This document shows, piece by piece, positions 1 through 5,918 of a stretch of DNA of 5,918 nucleotides (position 1 is the first letter of the stretch; every line of letters begins with the position of its first letter). The stretch comes from an uncultured Gammaproteobacteria bacterium (GTDB lineage Bacteria > Patescibacteriota > Patescibacteriia > UBA2591 > UBA6264), in the NCBI GenBank assembly GCA_964507075.1, contig CAZDOL010000018.1, forward strand, positions 3,623-9,540. The letters are read 5' to 3'. The position numbers were made by a program, and so were the translations under genes. The notes below the pieces were generated by a model. It had not been told where the DNA came from. It searched no databases and worked only from the letters and a program-made list of their open reading frames with translations.

Positions 1-429
1 TTTGTCGTTCCTCAATTTATTGACGTTGAACCTAAAATTTTAGGTCCGATTACACCACGCCAATTAATTATTTTAATTGTTACATTTGGTTTAGGTTTTA
101 TTTGTTTCAAGTTGTCCGATTTTACGCTTTTTATTTTTGAGGCAATTATTTTATTTATAGTTGGAGGCGCTTTGGCATTTGCAAAAGTTAATCATCAACC
201 AATTCATTCTTTTCTTTTTAATGTTTCTGTCACCCTTAAAAAACCCAAATTAAGAGTTTGGGGAAAAGAATATTCTTCTGTTCCTGAAAAAGAATTAAAA
301 ATTAAAGAAAAATTACCGACAGAGATAATAGATACTCGTCGTAAGCCCCTTTTCCGTTCCAAGCTTTCGCAGATAGCATTATTAGTTGACACTGGCGGAA
401 GATATGATGAGGAAATAGAAAACGAATAG
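1..429 (+). CDS. prgI: PrgI-family (VirB3-like) small T4SS membrane protein; 5' end cut by the window edge
   Basis: Frame 1 is open from nt 1; the ORF track shows only the TTG-initiated part 112..429. Translation from nt 1 is FVVPQFIDVEPKILGPITPRQLIILIVTFGLGFICF... This is the VPQFIDVE..KI.GP.T.RQ N-terminal signature followed by two hydrophobic helices (LIILIVTFGLGFICF and FIFEAIILFIVGGALAFA) that I recognise from PrgI-family proteins. The gene sits just upstream of VirB4, as in Gram-positive T4SS operons. Stop TAG at 427-429. Confidence 0.8.
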   Translation, partial: FVVPQFIDVEPKILGPITPRQLIILIVTFGLGFICFKLSDFTLFIFEAIILFIVGGALAFAKVNHQPIHSFLFNVSVTLKKPKLRVWGKEYSSVPEKELKIKEKLPTEIIDTRRKPLFRSKLSQIALLVDTGGRYDEEIENE

Positions 430-525: not shown

Positions 526-1176
526 ATGAACATACCATCTACTCAAAAATATTTAGATATTGCGGAAATCAAAAATGACTGTTTAGTCTTGAAAGACGGC
601 AGTTTAAGAGCGGTTTTACTTGCTTCTTCTATAAACTTTGCTCTCAAATCTGAAGATGAACAAAAAGCCGTTATTCAATCTTACGCTCGTTTTTTGAATA
701 CTTTAGAATTTCCTTTACAAATTGTTATTCACTCCCGACCTTTTAATATTGACCCCTATGTCAATGAATTAAATATTCTGAAACAGAACCAAACTAACGA
801 GCTTCTTAGAAATCAAACAACAGATTATCGTGATTTTATCAAAGAATTAATAGATTTGGGAGAAATAATGAGCCGTCGTTTTTATATTGTTGTTCATTAT
901 AGTCCAGCTGGTGACAAAAAAAGAGGATTTTTGTCCAAAATTTCAGATATATTAAGCGCGGCCATCATAGTAAAGATTAAAAGAGAAAAATTTGAGGCCT
1001 ACAGAGAGATGCTTTTCAAAAGAGTTGATAATGTCATCTCAGGGCTTTCTTCTATGGGTATTAAAACTAGCCCCTTGGATACTCAGAGTTTAATTGAATT
1101 ATTTTATAACGTATACAATCCCGTAGAATCTAAAAATCAAAAATTAATAGATTTAGAAAAATTAAGAATAGAATAA
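526..1176 (+). CDS. Stand-alone homolog of the extreme N-terminal region of Gram-positive VirB4 (PrgJ/TcpF/Tn916 Orf16 type)
   Basis: 216-aa ORF. The segment STQKYLDIAEIKNDCLVLKDGSLRAVLLASSINFALKSEDEQKAVIQSYARFLNTLEFPLQIVIHS follows the pattern I recall at the start of full-length Gram-positive VirB4 ATPases (...DG...y...f.DINY.La..eDk..if..w..FLN.......Q...). It ends in a double stop TAATAA (1174-1179), 4 nt before the next ATG. Confidence 0.7.
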   Translation: MNIPSTQKYLDIAEIKNDCLVLKDGSLRAVLLASSINFALKSEDEQKAVIQSYARFLNTLEFPLQIVIHSRPFNIDPYVNELNILKQNQTNELLRNQTTDYRDFIKELIDLGEIMSRRFYIVVHYSPAGDKKRGFLSKISDILSAAIIVKIKREKFEAYREMLFKRVDNVISGLSSMGIKTSPLDTQSLIELFYNVYNPVESKNQKLIDLEKLRIE

Positions 1177-1180
1177 TAAT

Positions 1181-3064
1181 ATGTCTATAACCCCAGATAG
1201 TTTAATAGAAAAAGAAGAAGACAAAGAAAAAAAGGTTTCTTCTTTGTCAGACCAAAAAGCTCATGAATTTATTGATACTGAAGAAAAATATCAACGTGGT
1301 CGTTTTACGGTTCAAGATTTGATTGCTCCTTCAGCTTTAAGGGTAAATCCTCAATATCTCCAGTTGGGAGATAGATATTTGCGGACGATTTTTGTAGTAG
1401 GATTTCCAAGATATATTTCTGTGGGGTGGTTTATGCCAGTTATTAATTTTAATGCCTATTTGGATGTAGCTATGTTTTTTTATCCAGTTAAAGCAGGCAT
1501 TATACTTAAACAACTTCAGAATAGGGTTGGCAACCTTCAGGCTGAAATGAGCATCGCCCAGGACAAAGGTTTGCCTCGCGACCCCCTTAAAGAAACTGCT
1601 CTTAATGACATTGAACAATTAAGAGATGATTTAACTACTGGTGTTGAACATTTTTTTCAATTTGGTCTTTATATAACTGTTTATGCTAAAAGCGAGAAGA
1701 AATTAGATTTATTGACCGAAAAGATAGAAAGCCTTTTGGCTTCAAAATTAATTTATAGTCGAAGGATTTTTTACCAGTCAGAGCAAGCATTTAATTCTAC
1801 TCTTCCTTTATCTAATGACCAATTAATGATTTTAAATAATATTAATTCTTCTCCTTGCGCTTCCAGCTTCCCCTTTATCTCTGCTGATTTAACCTCAGAG
1901 AATGGTGTTCTTTATGGAGTAAATAGACACAACAACAGTTTAATTCTTTTTGATCGTTTTTCTATGCCTAATGCCAATTTTGTTGTGTTTGCTACCTCTG
2001 GAGCTGGTAAATCATATTTTTGTAAATTAGAAGTTCTGCGCTCATTGATGTTTGGTACAGATGTAATTATTATTGACCCAGAACAAGAATATAAGCATCT
2101 TTCTGATGCTGTAGGTGGTACTTATATCAATATTTCCCTTTCTTCTGAGAGCAAAATTAATCCATTTGATTTACCGAAATCAGAAGATAAAAACATTAGC
2201 GCGGCTGATGTGATTCGTACTAGTGTTATCACAATTAAGGGGCTTTTAAGAATTATGATTGGACAGGAAAATAAAGAAGGGGTTAAGAATTTTACCGCTC
2301 AGGAGGATTCTATAATGGACAGAGCTTTGATTGAAACTTATGCCAAGAAAGATATTGTTCCTGGATGTGACTTAAGTCAGGTAAACATTCCCACCATGAG
2401 CGATTTGCAAGAAATATTAGAGGGAATGGAGGGAGGAGCTGATTTAGCTGAAAGGTTAAAGAAATATACAGAAGGCACTTTTGCTGGTTTTCTTAATAAT
2501 CCTACTAATGTAGAGACGGATAATCAATTAGTTACTTTCTCTGTTCGCGACATTGAAGATGAATTAAGGCCAATGGCTATTTATACTATTGTTAGTTATA
2601 TTTGGAATGTGGTTCGGTCAAAATTAAAGAAAAGGATTTTATTGATTGACGAAGCCTGGTGGTTAATGCAACACGAAGATTCAGCCAAGTTTATCTTTGC
2701 TTTAGTTAAACGTTGCAGAAAGTATTATTTAGGGGTTACTACCATTACTCAAGACGTTAATGATTTTTTGGAATCATCTTATGGTCGGGCAATTGTGACT
2801 AATTCGGCTCTGCAATTGCTTTTAAAGCAATCACCAGCAGCTATTGACGGAGTGGCTAAAACTTTTATGCTCACTGAAGGCGAAAAATATTTATTACTGG
2901 AATGTGGAATTGGTGATGGAATATTTTTTGCTGGTTCTAAACATGCGGCTATCAAGATAGTTGCTTCTTATTCTGAAGACCAGTTAATAACATCAGACCC
3001 CAAACAATTATTAGAGATTGAGGAAGCTAAGAAGGAATTCGCGAGAGAGCAGGGCAAGAAATAA
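1181..3064 (+). CDS. virB4: VirB4/PrgJ-like T4SS ATPase: remainder of the N-terminal domain plus the ATPase domain
   Basis: 627-aa ORF. Walker A is ATSGAGKS (nt 1991-2014). Walker B is ILLIDEAW (nt 2636-2659), the DEAW form typical of VirB4. A TTITQD motif lies at nt 2738-2755. Upstream of the ATPase domain is the VirB4-type segment DLIAPSALRVNPQYLQLGDRYLRTIFVVGFPRYISVGWFMPVINF. Confidence 0.9.
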   Translation: MSITPDSLIEKEEDKEKKVSSLSDQKAHEFIDTEEKYQRGRFTVQDLIAPSALRVNPQYLQLGDRYLRTIFVVGFPRYISVGWFMPVINFNAYLDVAMFFYPVKAGIILKQLQNRVGNLQAEMSIAQDKGLPRDPLKETALNDIEQLRDDLTTGVEHFFQFGLYITVYAKSEKKLDLLTEKIESLLASKLIYSRRIFYQSEQAFNSTLPLSNDQLMILNNINSSPCASSFPFISADLTSENGVLYGVNRHNNSLILFDRFSMPNANFVVFATSGAGKSYFCKLEVLRSLMFGTDVIIIDPEQEYKHLSDAVGGTYINISLSSESKINPFDLPKSEDKNISAADVIRTSVITIKGLLRIMIGQENKEGVKNFTAQEDSIMDRALIETYAKKDIVPGCDLSQVNIPTMSDLQEILEGMEGGADLAERLKKYTEGTFAGFLNNPTNVETDNQLVTFSVRDIEDELRPMAIYTIVSYIWNVVRSKLKKRILLIDEAWWLMQHEDSAKFIFALVKRCRKYYLGVTTITQDVNDFLESSYGRAIVTNSALQLLLKQSPAAIDGVAKTFMLTEGEKYLLLECGIGDGIFFAGSKHAAIKIVASYSEDQLITSDPKQLLEIEEAKKEFAREQGKK

Positions 3065-3090: not shown

Positions 3091-3663
3091 ATGAAGAAAA
3101 AAAATATTTTTATCGCGATTATTATTGTTCTTCTTGTAGGGGGAGTTATTTTAATACTATTAAGCAAAGGAGATGTTGGCGTTAGACCGGAAGATGGCTC
3201 TGTCCCGAGTGTTTTGACGGAAGAAGAGAAAGAGAGTGATGTTTTAGAGAAAATTGGGGAGCAAGAAGAGGAAAAATTCGCTGACCCTCTTATTGTTCTT
3301 CAGAAGCAATTAGAAAATAGGGCTCGTTTTTTCATAGAACGTTACAACACTTATTCTTCAGACAACAATCAAGAAAATTTACGCAGTTTATTGTCTCAAG
3401 TTAGTAATAAGTTGGCAAAAGAGATAGAAGCTCGTCTGATAAAGAAAATCAACCAAGATGATAATTTTTTTAGTTTTCAAACCAAAGTGTTATCTTTGAA
3501 TTTGTCCAATTTTATTGACAACGAAAAAGCAGTTTTTGTGGGTCAAATTCAAACACAAGAAATACATAATGAACAAACAGAAATTCATTACAAAACAGCA
3601 ATACTGGAATTCATTTATGAAAATCAAGAATGGAAAGTAGACAACATTAAGTTAGGTAATTAG
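3091..3663 (+). CDS. Bitopic membrane-anchored protein with an alpha+beta C-terminal domain; candidate VirB8/PrgL-like T4SS component
   Basis: 190-aa ORF. It has a short basic N-terminus MKKKN and one TM helix IFIAIIIVLLVGGVILILL (nt 3106-3162). An acidic linker follows (TEEEKESDVLEKIGEQEEEK). The ~125-aa C-terminal domain (nt 3283-3660) has helix-like segments followed by strand-like segments (FFSFQTKVLSLNL, KAVFVGQIQTQEI, TEIHYKTAILEFIYENQEWKVDNI). It occupies the position after VirB4 where prgL-type genes sit. The functional call is inference. Confidence 0.6.
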   Translation: MKKKNIFIAIIIVLLVGGVILILLSKGDVGVRPEDGSVPSVLTEEEKESDVLEKIGEQEEEKFADPLIVLQKQLENRARFFIERYNTYSSDNNQENLRSLLSQVSNKLAKEIEARLIKKINQDDNFFSFQTKVLSLNLSNFIDNEKAVFVGQIQTQEIHNEQTEIHYKTAILEFIYENQEWKVDNIKLGN

Positions 3664-3697
3664 GTACATGGGTACTTAGGGATTGGGATTAGTATCC

Positions 3698-3729
3698 TAA
3701 TTAACCAATTAACTAATTAACCAATTAAC
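3698..3729. repeat. Four tandem octamers YAATTAAC (equivalently 2 x 16-nt TAATTAACCAATTAAC)
   Basis: TAATTAAC at 3698-3705, CAATTAAC at 3706-3713, TAATTAAC at 3714-3721 and CAATTAAC at 3722-3729, read directly. The array ends 8 nt before ATG 3738. Confidence 0.9.
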
Positions 3730-3737
3730 TAAGTCCT

Positions 3738-4388
3738 ATGCCTACCGATTTTGAGAAATCCAAACAAGAACAAGAAAAAAGAAGAGAGCTCTGGCATGAG
3801 CAACAAAAGGACCGGAGGGAAGAAACAAAACCTAATAATTTAGAAAAACTTGCAAGAAAAGAGTACCAACGCAGATTAAAGCCACAGACGCCAGTGCAAG
3901 CGTTAAGAAGAGCGACCAAAGAGATTGGAAGGGGGAGCGGGGACACAGAAGCAGTCTCTCAAAAGCCAGCAAGAATTTTGGCGCGTTTAAGAGCGCAACG
4001 GTTGCAGGAGTTAAGAGAAAAGAGAAGTAGAGAACAAAAAGGGGGCGGTAAGGTAGAAGAGGCGAAAGAGAAAATAGAAGAAACCAAGAAAGCGGCAAAA
4101 CGTTTAAAAATGATTTATCGGGTAATAAATGGAACAGCGGCAGTAACCTTAGTGGGATTAATTATCACTTTCTTGGTTATGAACGCCCAGCTTATTTTCG
4201 GTAATTTATTGAAATCAAAGATAGTTCCAGCATTATCTAAAATAGAAATTTTTATAATTTTATTCATAGATTTTGCTGTTTTCATAGCTCTCCTTTTGAC
4301 TCTTTTGCCATTAATTGCAACTGTTGCTATAATGATGGAGAGTCCAATTATAAAATTTATCGCAGATTTTTTTAATTTATCTATATGA
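3738..4388 (+). CDS. Bipartite hypothetical membrane protein: K/R/E-rich N-terminal region plus a C-terminal TM hairpin
   Basis: 216-aa ORF. Residues 1-124 (nt 3738-4109) are almost entirely charged or polar, e.g. EKRRELWHEQQKDRREETK, LRAQRLQELREKRSREQK and KVEEAKEKIEETKKAAKRLK. Residues 125-216 hold 2-3 hydrophobic helices (AAVTLVGLIITFLVMNAQLIFG and IEIFIILFIDFAVFIALLLTLLPLIATVAIMM). The TGA stop (4386-4388) overlaps the next ATG in an ATGA junction. The start is uncertain because an internal ATG at 4110 would give a TM-only protein. Confidence 0.65.
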   Translation: MPTDFEKSKQEQEKRRELWHEQQKDRREETKPNNLEKLARKEYQRRLKPQTPVQALRRATKEIGRGSGDTEAVSQKPARILARLRAQRLQELREKRSREQKGGGKVEEAKEKIEETKKAAKRLKMIYRVINGTAAVTLVGLIITFLVMNAQLIFGNLLKSKIVPALSKIEIFIILFIDFAVFIALLLTLLPLIATVAIMMESPIIKFIADFFNLSI

Positions 4389-5551
4389 TTAGCAAAAATA
4401 AAATTTTTCTACTTTTATTCTGTTTATTCTTTTTGTTTGCTAATTTTTCTTTTGTCAGCGCGAACAATGGAGTACATGAAGACTATTCGGGTAAAGTTAA
4501 ATTTGTTCCGCAAATAGGAATTCCAGATAGTAAATTTGAAGCGGGAAAGGAAGTTGTGGTGGATGGAGGAACCTTTATTGACTATCTCAAAGCTATATAT
4601 ATGTGGGCAGTAGGAGCTATTGCAATTATCGCCATAGTAATGATTATGATAGCTGGATTTCAATGGATGACCGCAGCTGGTAATGCTTCGGCAATCGGTC
4701 AAGCTAAATCTCGTATCAGCTCCTCTTTAATCGGTTTGCTTTTAGCGATAGGAGCTTATTCTCTTCTTAATTTTGTTAATCCTTCTTTAGTGCACCTCCG
4801 AACTTTAGATTTAGGTAACATAGAATATGTAGATTTGAATATTGCTAAAACAATTTGCAATGATGGTGCTTTATGTTATGAATGGCATGATCATCGTTGT
4901 TTCGAGATAATGAAGAATGATAATCATGCAGAACAATATTTTCCTTTAAGTGAGTTTGGGATAATCTCTTTAGAGCCAGATATTATATATTATGACATGA
5001 TTCTTGATTTAGGCGTAGATGATAATTATATTTCAGGTTGTGATGTCAAGAACGATTTTTGGGCCATAGAGCACCGGATATTTAAACATTTATTTACTCC
5101 AGGGCATCCAAGATTTATTTTACTTGACGGCAGATATGACCAGGACATAGATCCCGAAAAGAACTTTTATGACTATATTAAAAACGGTTGCGCAGGAATT
5201 ATGGTAATTGCCGATTATGACGCTAATGAAAGTTTAACGGGCTTAAATGTAACAGTTGCTAACAAAAGTGCTGGCAAGGCCTCTGCCTATATTAAGAATA
5301 TTGAAATCTCTACAAATAAATCTTGTCACGTTTGTTGTGAGACAAAGAAGGGTTTTTTTAGTGGTAAAATAAGTTTTCTTCAGAAATCAGCTTGCACAGA
5401 GAAAGGGGAGATAATTGATCCGTCTATATGTTGTCAAAGAATTAATCCAATGACAAAATGTGAGAATTTAGATATAGGGAGCTGTGTGACTTATAGCCAA
5501 TGGTGTAATAAGTGTCACTGGGATGTAGAAAACAAGAAATGTATAGACTAA
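4385..5551 (+). CDS. Secreted TrbC/VirB2-like T4SS pilin-type hairpin fused to a ~250-aa cysteine-rich extracellular domain
   Basis: 388-aa ORF. The signal peptide is MISKNKIFLLLFCLFFLFANFSFVSA, with a VSA|NN cleavage-type site (nt 4385-4462). Two hydrophobic helices flank a short basic loop: YMWAVGAIAIIAIVMIMIAGFQWM - TAAGNASAIGQAKSR - ISSSLIGLLLAIGAYSLLNFVNPSLV (nt ~4571-4792). This is the VirB2/TrbC-like pilin architecture. A 249-aa C-terminal extension follows, carrying 16 Cys. Stop TAA at 5549-5551. Confidence 0.85.
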   Translation: MISKNKIFLLLFCLFFLFANFSFVSANNGVHEDYSGKVKFVPQIGIPDSKFEAGKEVVVDGGTFIDYLKAIYMWAVGAIAIIAIVMIMIAGFQWMTAAGNASAIGQAKSRISSSLIGLLLAIGAYSLLNFVNPSLVHLRTLDLGNIEYVDLNIAKTICNDGALCYEWHDHRCFEIMKNDNHAEQYFPLSEFGIISLEPDIIYYDMILDLGVDDNYISGCDVKNDFWAIEHRIFKHLFTPGHPRFILLDGRYDQDIDPEKNFYDYIKNGCAGIMVIADYDANESLTGLNVTVANKSAGKASAYIKNIEISTNKSCHVCCETKKGFFSGKISFLQKSACTEKGEIIDPSICCQRINPMTKCENLDIGSCVTYSQWCNKCHWDVENKKCID

Positions 5552-5763: not shown

Positions 5764-5918
5764 ATGAACGCAAAAACTAAAAAAATTTTAATAATTATTG
5801 GCTTTATAATCTTAGTATTATTTTTGGCTTTTCTTTTATATCTTGTTTTTTTCAAAAAACCGGCAGTTGTAGAGCCAGTAGAAGAACCCCCGATAGAGAT
5901 TCTGCCACGATTGCCAGT
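5764..5918 (+). CDS. N-terminally membrane-anchored hypothetical protein; 3' end cut by the window edge
   Basis: This ORF is not in the supplied track. ATG at 5764 is preceded by an in-frame TAA, and the frame stays open to nt 5918. Translation is MNAKTKKILIIIGFIILVLFLAFLLYLVFFKKPAVVEPVEEPPIEILPRLP, i.e. a basic N-terminus, one TM helix, then a Pro/Glu-rich linker. It has the same strand and style as the upstream genes. Only 51 codons are visible. Confidence 0.5.
   Translation, partial: MNAKTKKILIIIGFIILVLFLAFLLYLVFFKKPAVVEPVEEPPIEILPRLP

Follow-up and report, generated by a model that had tools for sequence, protein, structure and literature searches.

VirB2-like pilins are known from the type IV secretion system (T4SS) clusters of Patescibacteria, an example being the array of pilins that Southlakia epibionticum ML1 requires as an essential component (PMC10633639, PMC12102498, PMC12857230), and the T4SS is essential in the one species tested, with a function reported as unknown (PMC10633639, PMC11665869). 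The pilins described from this phylum are small proteins encoded in arrays of 2-11 divergent copies. Here we report on a gene in a 5,918-nt stretch of metagenomic DNA (contig CAZDOL010000018.1 of assembly GCA_964507075.1; hereafter the window), whose product shares with these pilins the PF18895 domain, a signal peptide followed by a two-helix hairpin, and a place in a chromosomal cluster with VirB4, TrsD and PrgI genes, which is likewise related to monoderm systems and has no relaxase gene nearby. In contrast to the described pilins, however, it is single-copy in its cluster, 388 amino acids (aa) long, and extended by a 249-aa cysteine-rich domain that is predicted to lie outside the cell. Neither extended pilins nor pilin-hydrolase fusions are mentioned in the searchable literature. 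We propose, with a confidence that is about evenly balanced, that the protein is a pilin-derived, T4SS-associated membrane anchor displaying a variable, non-enzymatic contact or recognition domain.

The assignment of the hairpin to the T4SS_pilin family was made by profile searches. PF18895 aligned with residues 68-130 over profile positions 9-70 of 71, at 28.2 bits against a gathering score of 26.6 (E 2e-6), and the same annotation is found in precomputed tables for most homologues; this, and the position of the gene within a VirB4/TrsD/PrgI cluster, agrees with a preliminary description of the DNA, in which the hairpin was expected to match pilin profiles. The NCBIfam model NF045849 (Mbov_0395 family pilin-like conjugal transfer protein) also matched, at residues 64-131 (25.5 bits, E 7.8e-6), under its equivalog cutoff of 40; by this score the protein is related to that family and is not an equivalog. 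PF04956 (TrbC/VirB2) gave no match to the 388-aa protein at E up to 1, and its scores for two relatives, 18.8 bits for P0029 and 25.9 bits for L025, are both under the cutoff of 27.9, suggesting that the classical pilins are remote relatives at best. The features shared by PF18895 and VirB2-like pilins, namely a leader, here predicted to be cleaved, two helices and a short basic loop, are all present, as is a T4SS cluster with VirB4 and VirB3-type genes. Only the size is at odds with such pilins, which are of about 90-160 aa with little beyond the hairpin. A type IV pilus pilin was rejected as a candidate, as the class III leader (G↓F/M-x-x-x-E) and the single helix of these proteins are lacking: the N terminus, MISKNKIFLLLFCLFFLFANFSFVSA↓NN, is a Sec-type leader and is followed by two further helices. 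Judging from these matches and the gene context, the protein is a member of the Patescibacteria VirB2-like T4SS_pilin family.

Hydropathy analysis gives three hydrophobic segments (residues 1-26, about 64-99 and about 110-136), and the full-length AlphaFold model contains two long helices at residues 61-97 and 101-136, with values of the predicted local distance difference test (pLDDT) below 50 at residues 127-150, which form a linker. In an alignment of 24 family members Ala26 is invariant directly before the predicted cleavage point VSA↓NN; also invariant are F40, P42, Q43, I46, P47 and G54 in residues 27-66, and N132, P133, S134, L135, V136, L138 and L141 in the junction that follows, whose NPSLV stands directly after helix 2. 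This junction motif is kept in proteins with unrelated tails as well. The signal peptide, the two helices, the basic loop QAKSR and the NPSLV motif of the preliminary description were thus borne out by hydropathy, alignment and structure model, as was the 249-aa extension beyond the hairpin. The inter-helix loop AAGNASAIGQAKSRIS (…GQAKSR…) has a charge of +2/0, and a net acidic charge is found both in residues 27-66 and in the segment that follows helix 2. Together with the hydropathy, these charges agree with an out-in-out arrangement, which would place the tail outside whether or not the leader is cleaved, and the earlier suggestion of an external extension is supported by the signal peptide, the positive-inside loop and the enrichment of Cys residues in the tail.

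The gene is neither a chance open reading frame (ORF) nor an assembly fusion: 21 contigs, obtained from different samples, encode the identical 388-aa protein, and its architecture recurs in about 28 full-length homologues at 39-66% identity. Truncated variants do exist (P0015, 317 aa, without the Cys knot described below, and P0018, 227 aa), and they could be taken to mean that two genes were fused by a sequencing or assembly error or that the gene is a decaying pseudogene; against the 21 identical copies, and with about 28 homologues that keep the full architecture and 14 conserved Cys residues, such an artefact has next to no probability. P0015 was also considered as a paralogue in the metagenome-assembled genome (MAG) that carries P0002, and this was rejected: it belongs to a complete second copy of the syntenic locus, down to radA and recG, so that the bin more likely holds two strains.

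The tail (residues 140-388) contains 16 Cys residues, or 6.4%. For comparison, Cys makes up 0-0.7% of the other proteins encoded in the cluster and 0.73% of 654 background ORFs from related loci. A 17th residue, C13, belongs to the signal peptide. Fourteen of the 16 are conserved in the alignment, three of them in the first part of the tail (C158, C172 and C219) and 11 in its last 75 residues (C314, C317, C318, C337, C349, C350, C359, C367, C374, C377 and C386). The preliminary description had counted 16 Cys residues and allowed for up to eight disulfides; the count stands, but since 14 residues are conserved and family members carry 14-18, an odd number in some, seven conserved disulfides are the better estimate. 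Besides Cys residues, only Y165, W167, S300 and W379 are invariant in the tail, and across the 24 sequences there is no invariant D, E, H, K or R. An enzymatic role was rejected for this lack of conserved catalytic residues; the signatures of VirB1-like/SLT or M15 hydrolases, which are encountered in relatives only, are absent from this tail. DNA binding, an idea prompted by the nearby radA and recG genes, was judged unlikely in view of the net charge of the tail, -14.

Residues 140-388 have no Pfam or NCBIfam match. AlphaFold, supplied with the family alignment, modelled residues 150-320 at pLDDT of about 90 in the full-length protein, and the tail alone at pLDDT 86.5 with a predicted template modelling score of 0.76; the model is a beta-sandwich followed by a small helix-and-strand knot. 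Foldseek searches of the PDB, with the full-length and the tail-only models, and of BFVD yielded nothing at E up to 1e-3, the beta-sandwich giving weak jelly-roll-type matches only, and a profile of the whole family found nothing among PDB sequences at E up to 10. The preliminary description had considered that the extension might prove to be a common housekeeping domain, and none was matched in Pfam, NCBIfam, the profile search or Foldseek. When the tail profile was run against 1.84 billion representative proteins, 18 hits were obtained; in all full-length ones the tail starts at residue 129-145, straight behind the hairpin, and the remaining hits are fragments. By this search the tail is an orphan domain that exists solely as a pilin appendage.

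The same hits bear on the possibility of a pro-protein, cut at or near NPSLV-x-LR-x-L to leave a short pilin together with either a soluble Cys-rich factor or a removed, assembly-blocking pro-domain. The precursors of RP4 TrbC and Ti VirB2 are trimmed at the C terminus before cyclisation, the invariant junction motif lies within a flexible linker, and short relatives end 11-27 residues after the same motif. Nevertheless, the tail never occurs as a separate protein among the hits apart from contig-end fragments, Pfam and NCBIfam scans recognised no protease gene in the cluster, and the motif is also present in short pilins, so that it is probably part of the pilin core. We regard such processing as clearly improbable.

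Hairpin and tail differ strongly in conservation. Mean pairwise identity within the family is 82% for the hairpin (minimum 67%), compared with 35% for the sandwich and 31% for the knot. Between the window and the related locus L005, identity is 85% for VirB4, 82% for TrsD, 78% for the hairpin, 72% for the beta-propeller protein encoded downstream, 65% for RadA and about 30% for the tail, which by this comparison evolves faster than any other part of the locus. Genomes with a pilin of just 40-66% identity retain the gene order. In distant genomes the slot and the hairpin are still present (38-48% identity), including the junction as NP[SDE]L[VT], joined to unrelated tails that bring the total length to 279-553 aa, as in P0032 (L008), P0036 (L009) and P0034 (L010). 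Proteins of this type have no match to the tail profile at E up to 10, and Pfam shows PF18895 alone. A static structural part without ligand binding, i.e., an envelope-spanning stalk or cap replacing missing VirB5, VirB8 or VirB10 functions, would suit the fixed gene slot, the translational coupling to the upstream gene and the rigid, disulfide-locked domain that is predicted, as well as the lack of most outer T4SS parts in Patescibacteria (PMC12102498). Core machine parts normally evolve slowly, though, whereas this tail is the fastest in its locus and is replaced by unrelated sequences in the same slot, and we therefore consider a structural part rather improbable.

The distribution of extended hairpin genes was surveyed by a hairpin-profile scan of GTDB species-representative genome contigs, as a word-indexed homologue search with the hairpin alone had produced 39 candidates, 2 hits and no length distribution. 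The scan returned 79 loci, from Patescibacteria MAGs where titles were informative; as its pattern, M[IF][MV][IV][AG]GF[QI][WY], favours hairpins like this one, the extended fraction describes this sample and not the phylum as a whole. The gene runs at least 100 aa past the hairpin in 52 of the 79 loci, and by this count the pilin-plus-tail architecture is not rare within the phylum Patescibacteria. BLAST groups these 52 tails into 29 clusters, of which 22 are singletons, and VirB4 lies within the fetched flank in 22 of the loci. Their mean Cys content is 4.8%, and the number of Cys residues is even in 45, which points strongly, if indirectly, to disulfide pairing and hence to an extracytoplasmic location. 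Extended genes occur singly or in 2-4 tandem copies (four of them in L053 7839-13541 and three in L028 7644-12104, encoding 398-590 aa). Short hairpin proteins of 90-200 aa are mainly found in tandem arrays in Saccharibacteria and Dojkabacteria-type genomes, matching the published pilin arrays.

The preliminary description had also suggested looking in the genome for paralogs that join the hairpin to different C-terminal domains; in relatives, two hydrolase types were found besides the unrelated tails. An SLT lytic-transglycosylase domain follows the hairpin in L019 (555 aa, E 4.7e-15) and in L036 (474 aa, 21.9 bits against a cutoff of 21.3); such pilin-VirB1 type chimeras lie at L019 7671-9338, L036 1603-3027 and L045 607-2043, those of L036 and L045 being a few kb away from a short-pilin array. 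Ten tails make up the largest cluster, most of them encoded beside VirB4, and 8 of these 10 tails, as aligned, have an invariant His, His and Asp and an HWH motif, which we take to mark a LAS-type enzyme; one member matches Peptidase_M15_4 (E 2e-5). These tails are probably pilin-anchored LAS-type peptidoglycan peptidases. The type is the commonest in Zambryskibacteria/Nomurabacteria-type T4SS clusters (L078 7812-8735, L061 7800-8804 and 11 further loci). Since peptidoglycan hydrolases must be outside the membrane, these fusions lend independent support to the proposed topology of the tail, and Cys-rich extensions between the leader and helix 1 in P0037, L019 and L036 are consistent with both protein ends being outside. 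Moreover, the SLT and M15/LAS-like domains suggest that T4SS accessory domains acting outside the cytoplasm are generally carried by this hairpin. A bolder version would have the VirB2 pilin turned into a display carrier that the T4SS loads into a filament or surface array with interchangeable cargo: this lineage would use Cys-rich binding domains, and other lineages SLT or M15/LAS wall hydrolases. An 'armed' pilus of this kind would recognise and breach the host envelope, and cargo swapping would set the host range. We consider this version possible, if unlikely.

A true filament subunit has to be weighed as well, in which hairpins polymerise like VirB2/TraA, each with its ectodomain outside, into a putative thick, decorated pilus. 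Conjugative pilins have both termini on the exterior of the pilus, where short peptides fused to the C terminus of F-pilin are also displayed. The gene studied here is the sole PF18895 gene within 10 kb of VirB4 in this lineage, so that the 388-aa protein may be the only subunit if the machine builds a pilus, and the 82% conservation of the hairpin is as expected of a self-assembling core. On the other hand, a 28-kDa domain on each core subunit of about 7 kDa is sterically demanding by geometric estimate, the wall-hydrolase fusions of relatives look more like anchored enzymes, and short pilins may exist elsewhere in the genome. A decorated filament thus appears doubtful to us.

We favour the membrane anchor with a contact or recognition domain. 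The protein would be exported by Sec and cut by signal peptidase I after Ala26, its two helices would insert with the basic loop towards the cytoplasm, and the beta-sandwich and Cys knot would become oxidised and fold outside the single membrane on a flexible linker. The hairpin would in this way have been given a second job, as the anchor of a disulfide-rich ectodomain, and the latter may act as a surface contact or recognition module with a ligand on the host cell or the cell wall; lineage-specific cargo swapping would reflect different partners or envelopes. The translational coupling to the upstream gene and the fixed slot after VirB4 suggest that the protein probably works with the secretion machine, and a tail without conserved catalytic residues that evolves much faster than the rest of the locus is most likely a contact or recognition module. 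The preliminary description had envisaged an adhesin, a tip or an effector, and we infer that a role of this kind may be served by the predicted ectodomain. Candidate Phyla Radiation (CPR) bacteria are reported to be enriched in an MdbA-like oxidoreductase and VKOR (bioRxiv 10.1101/335083), and in cultured Patescibacteria the T4SS_pilin proteins rank near the top in expression among secreted proteins of unknown function (PMC10936435), both of which indirectly support a displayed contact module. In addition, PF18895 dominates freshwater-specific structural clusters in a structure-clustering preprint, which would fit diverse tails.

Several observations weigh against this proposal. No lectin or adhesin fold was matched by the tail, the best Foldseek hits having E 0.02 in the PDB and 0.002 in BFVD with a TM-score of at most 0.3. 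Some family members have an odd number of Cys residues, the invariant junction motif could be a processing site, and no further PF18895 gene lies within 10 kb, so that the extended protein could be the only subunit if the machine builds a pilus. Finally, the function of the Patescibacteria T4SSs is itself reported as unknown (PMC11665869).

The features of the window, which is AT-rich (31-40% GC) and has all its substantial ORFs on the + strand, are listed in Table 1.

Table 1. Genes of the window and segments of the extended pilin-like protein (coordinates in the window).
Feature	Coordinates	Strand	Remarks
Gene under study: T4SS_pilin hairpin with predicted Cys-rich C-terminal ectodomain	4385..5551	+	388 aa
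Predicted signal peptide, residues 1-26	4385..4462	+	cleavage motif VSA↓NN; from hydropathy; Ala26 and Phe21 invariant
Conserved mature N-terminal segment, residues 27-66	4463..4582	+	F-x-PQ-x-x-IP motif; predicted outside
PF18895 T4SS_pilin stretch, residues 68-130	4586..4774	+	helix 1, basic loop QAKSR, helix 2
Junction motif NPSLVHLRTLDLG, residues 132-144	4778..4816	+	start of low-confidence linker
Predicted beta-sandwich domain, residues ~150-313	4832..5323	+	pLDDT ~90 or higher in both models
Predicted C-terminal Cys-knot module, residues 314-388	5324..5548	+	11 Cys in 75 residues; pLDDT 69-89
PrgI/VirB3-like protein with two transmembrane segments	1..429	+	window begins 5 nt past ATG; full gene 144 aa in L001
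TrsD/TraC-like protein	526..1176	+	216 aa; resembles N-terminal part of VirB4
VirB4-family T4SS ATPase	1181..3064	+	627 aa; NF045971 conju_CD1110 332 bits vs cutoff 325; PF19044 E 6e-27
Bitopic protein, one N-terminal transmembrane segment	3091..3663	+	190 aa; conserved in slot
Membrane protein, charged cytoplasmic N-terminal half, two C-terminal transmembrane segments	3738..4388	+	216 aa
Start of 94-aa ORF duplicating the 5' end of the downstream 430-aa beta-propeller gene	5764..5918	+	runs past window end

The PrgI assignment is based on the two transmembrane segments, on a weak PF12666 PrgI annotation of the gene in L001 (275-709) and on 25.7 bits against PF12666 for the orthologue in L007. 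The TrsD-like protein matches NCBIfam TrsD (E 5e-8) and VirB4_plasma (E 2e-10) and, in precomputed tables, PF26593 TraC-like. The 190-aa protein has no PDB or Pfam match, and its profile gave no VirB8-like or NTF2-like match in the PDB; a VirB8-like role for it is a guess. The stop codon of the 216-aa membrane protein gene overlaps the start codon of the pilin gene (ATGA), and the two genes are directly adjacent in L004-L009. In L004, whose pilin and VirB4 are 100% identical to those of the window, the membrane protein (3599-4198, 199 aa) is only 62% identical, and the differences are concentrated in the charged N-terminal half, apparently a locally hypervariable region. Related loci have, ahead of the PrgI-like gene, a gene for a protein of about 850-890 aa (L007 261-2810; L005 866-3544), without Pfam match in either copy and with seven predicted transmembrane segments in the first 300 residues of the L007 copy; it is a candidate for an extended VirB6-like channel subunit. 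In Parcubacteria bacterium 4484_255, the closest relative with a name, the VirB4 gene (L006 4865-8743, 1292 aa) contains an intein (Intein_splicing and LAGLIDADG_3), as L012 probably does between 3156 and 6114; VirB4 of the window is without one.

On longer contigs the pilin gene is followed by genes for the beta-propeller (PD40-like) membrane protein, radA and a convergent recG, consistently so in L001, L005-L008 and L010. The 94-aa ORF (L001 6044-6328) repeats the first ~50 residues of the beta-propeller gene (L001 6359-7651) near exactly (MNAKTKKILIIIGFIILVL…LPRLPV), as if the 5' end had been partially duplicated; L001-L003 have this ORF and L004-L007 lack it. Within the Patescibacteria, a position of T4SS loci beside recG and radA is reported as typical of class ABY1 (Quiñonero-Coronel et al. 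2025, PMC12102498), and as the neighbours seen here match this published placement near recombination and competence genes, a DNA-uptake role of the T4SS is kept open. From this neighbourhood we infer that the lineage may be ABY1; the closest named relatives are Parcubacteria, Magasanikbacteria, Falkowbacteria and Buchananbacteria MAGs. Many GTDB MAGs titled 'uncultured Gammaproteobacteria bacterium' (binchicken assemblies; L013, L015, L017, L023 and others) carry typical Patescibacteria T4SS loci, and their titles appear wrong. A tblastn search of PLSDB plasmids with the hairpin returned nothing.

As to regulation, no intrinsic terminator was found, and PHROGs and Rfam searches gave nothing useful. 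Direct repeats precede two genes and may be regulatory: CTAATTAACCAATTAA occurs three times, overlapping with an 8-nt step, at 3697-3728 before the gene starting at 3738, and ATTCGTAAAAATTTGTT twice, 22 nt apart, at 479-517 before the gene starting at 526. A strong match to a sigma-70-like site (TTGCCA, 17 nt, TG-n-TATAAT; 11/12) lies at 4305-4333, within the 3' end of the upstream gene and about 50 nt before the pilin start; as evidence for a promoter it is uninformative, being conserved in close relatives only, where it is also coding.

Surveys treat the VirB2-like pilins of Patescibacteria as small, whereas two-thirds of our biased sample carry large, hypervariable and mostly Cys-rich predicted ectodomains. 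The architecture is common in this sample and apparently undescribed, and it may mark the host-touching part of the machine. As the extended gene is the only pilin gene of the cluster in this lineage, it is a concrete candidate for a host-contact or host-specificity element, with NPSLV-x-LR as the module boundary between hairpin and tail. T4SS pilins may thus serve as carriers of functional domains, for which the searchable literature on conjugative pilins holds no described precedent.

With the classical pilins VirB2, TrbC and TraA (PF04956) the protein shares a leader, two hydrophobic helices, a short basic loop and a gene beside VirB3- and VirB4-type genes, but it is three to four times longer, lacks a PF04956 match and has nothing that points to cyclisation. 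VirB1-type SLT hydrolases are linked to it through L019 and L036, where SLT is carried on the same hairpin, whereas its own tail has neither a hydrolase signature nor conserved catalytic residues. Peribacteria of the CPR encode large Cys-rich extracellular proteins, on average of about 1,650 aa, which are strain-variable and have a proposed role in attachment (PMC4736985); they are likewise secreted, very rich in Cys and variable, but without pilin hairpin or link to a T4SS. The displayed domain proposed here otherwise has its nearest analogues among adhesive pilins. In FimH of chaperone-usher pili and in the type IVb minor pilins CofB and TcpB, a linker connects a pilin-type module with a beta-rich binding domain; neither their sequences nor their assembly systems are related to those studied here, and our protein has no type IV prepilin leader, yet by analogy the functional logic would be the same.

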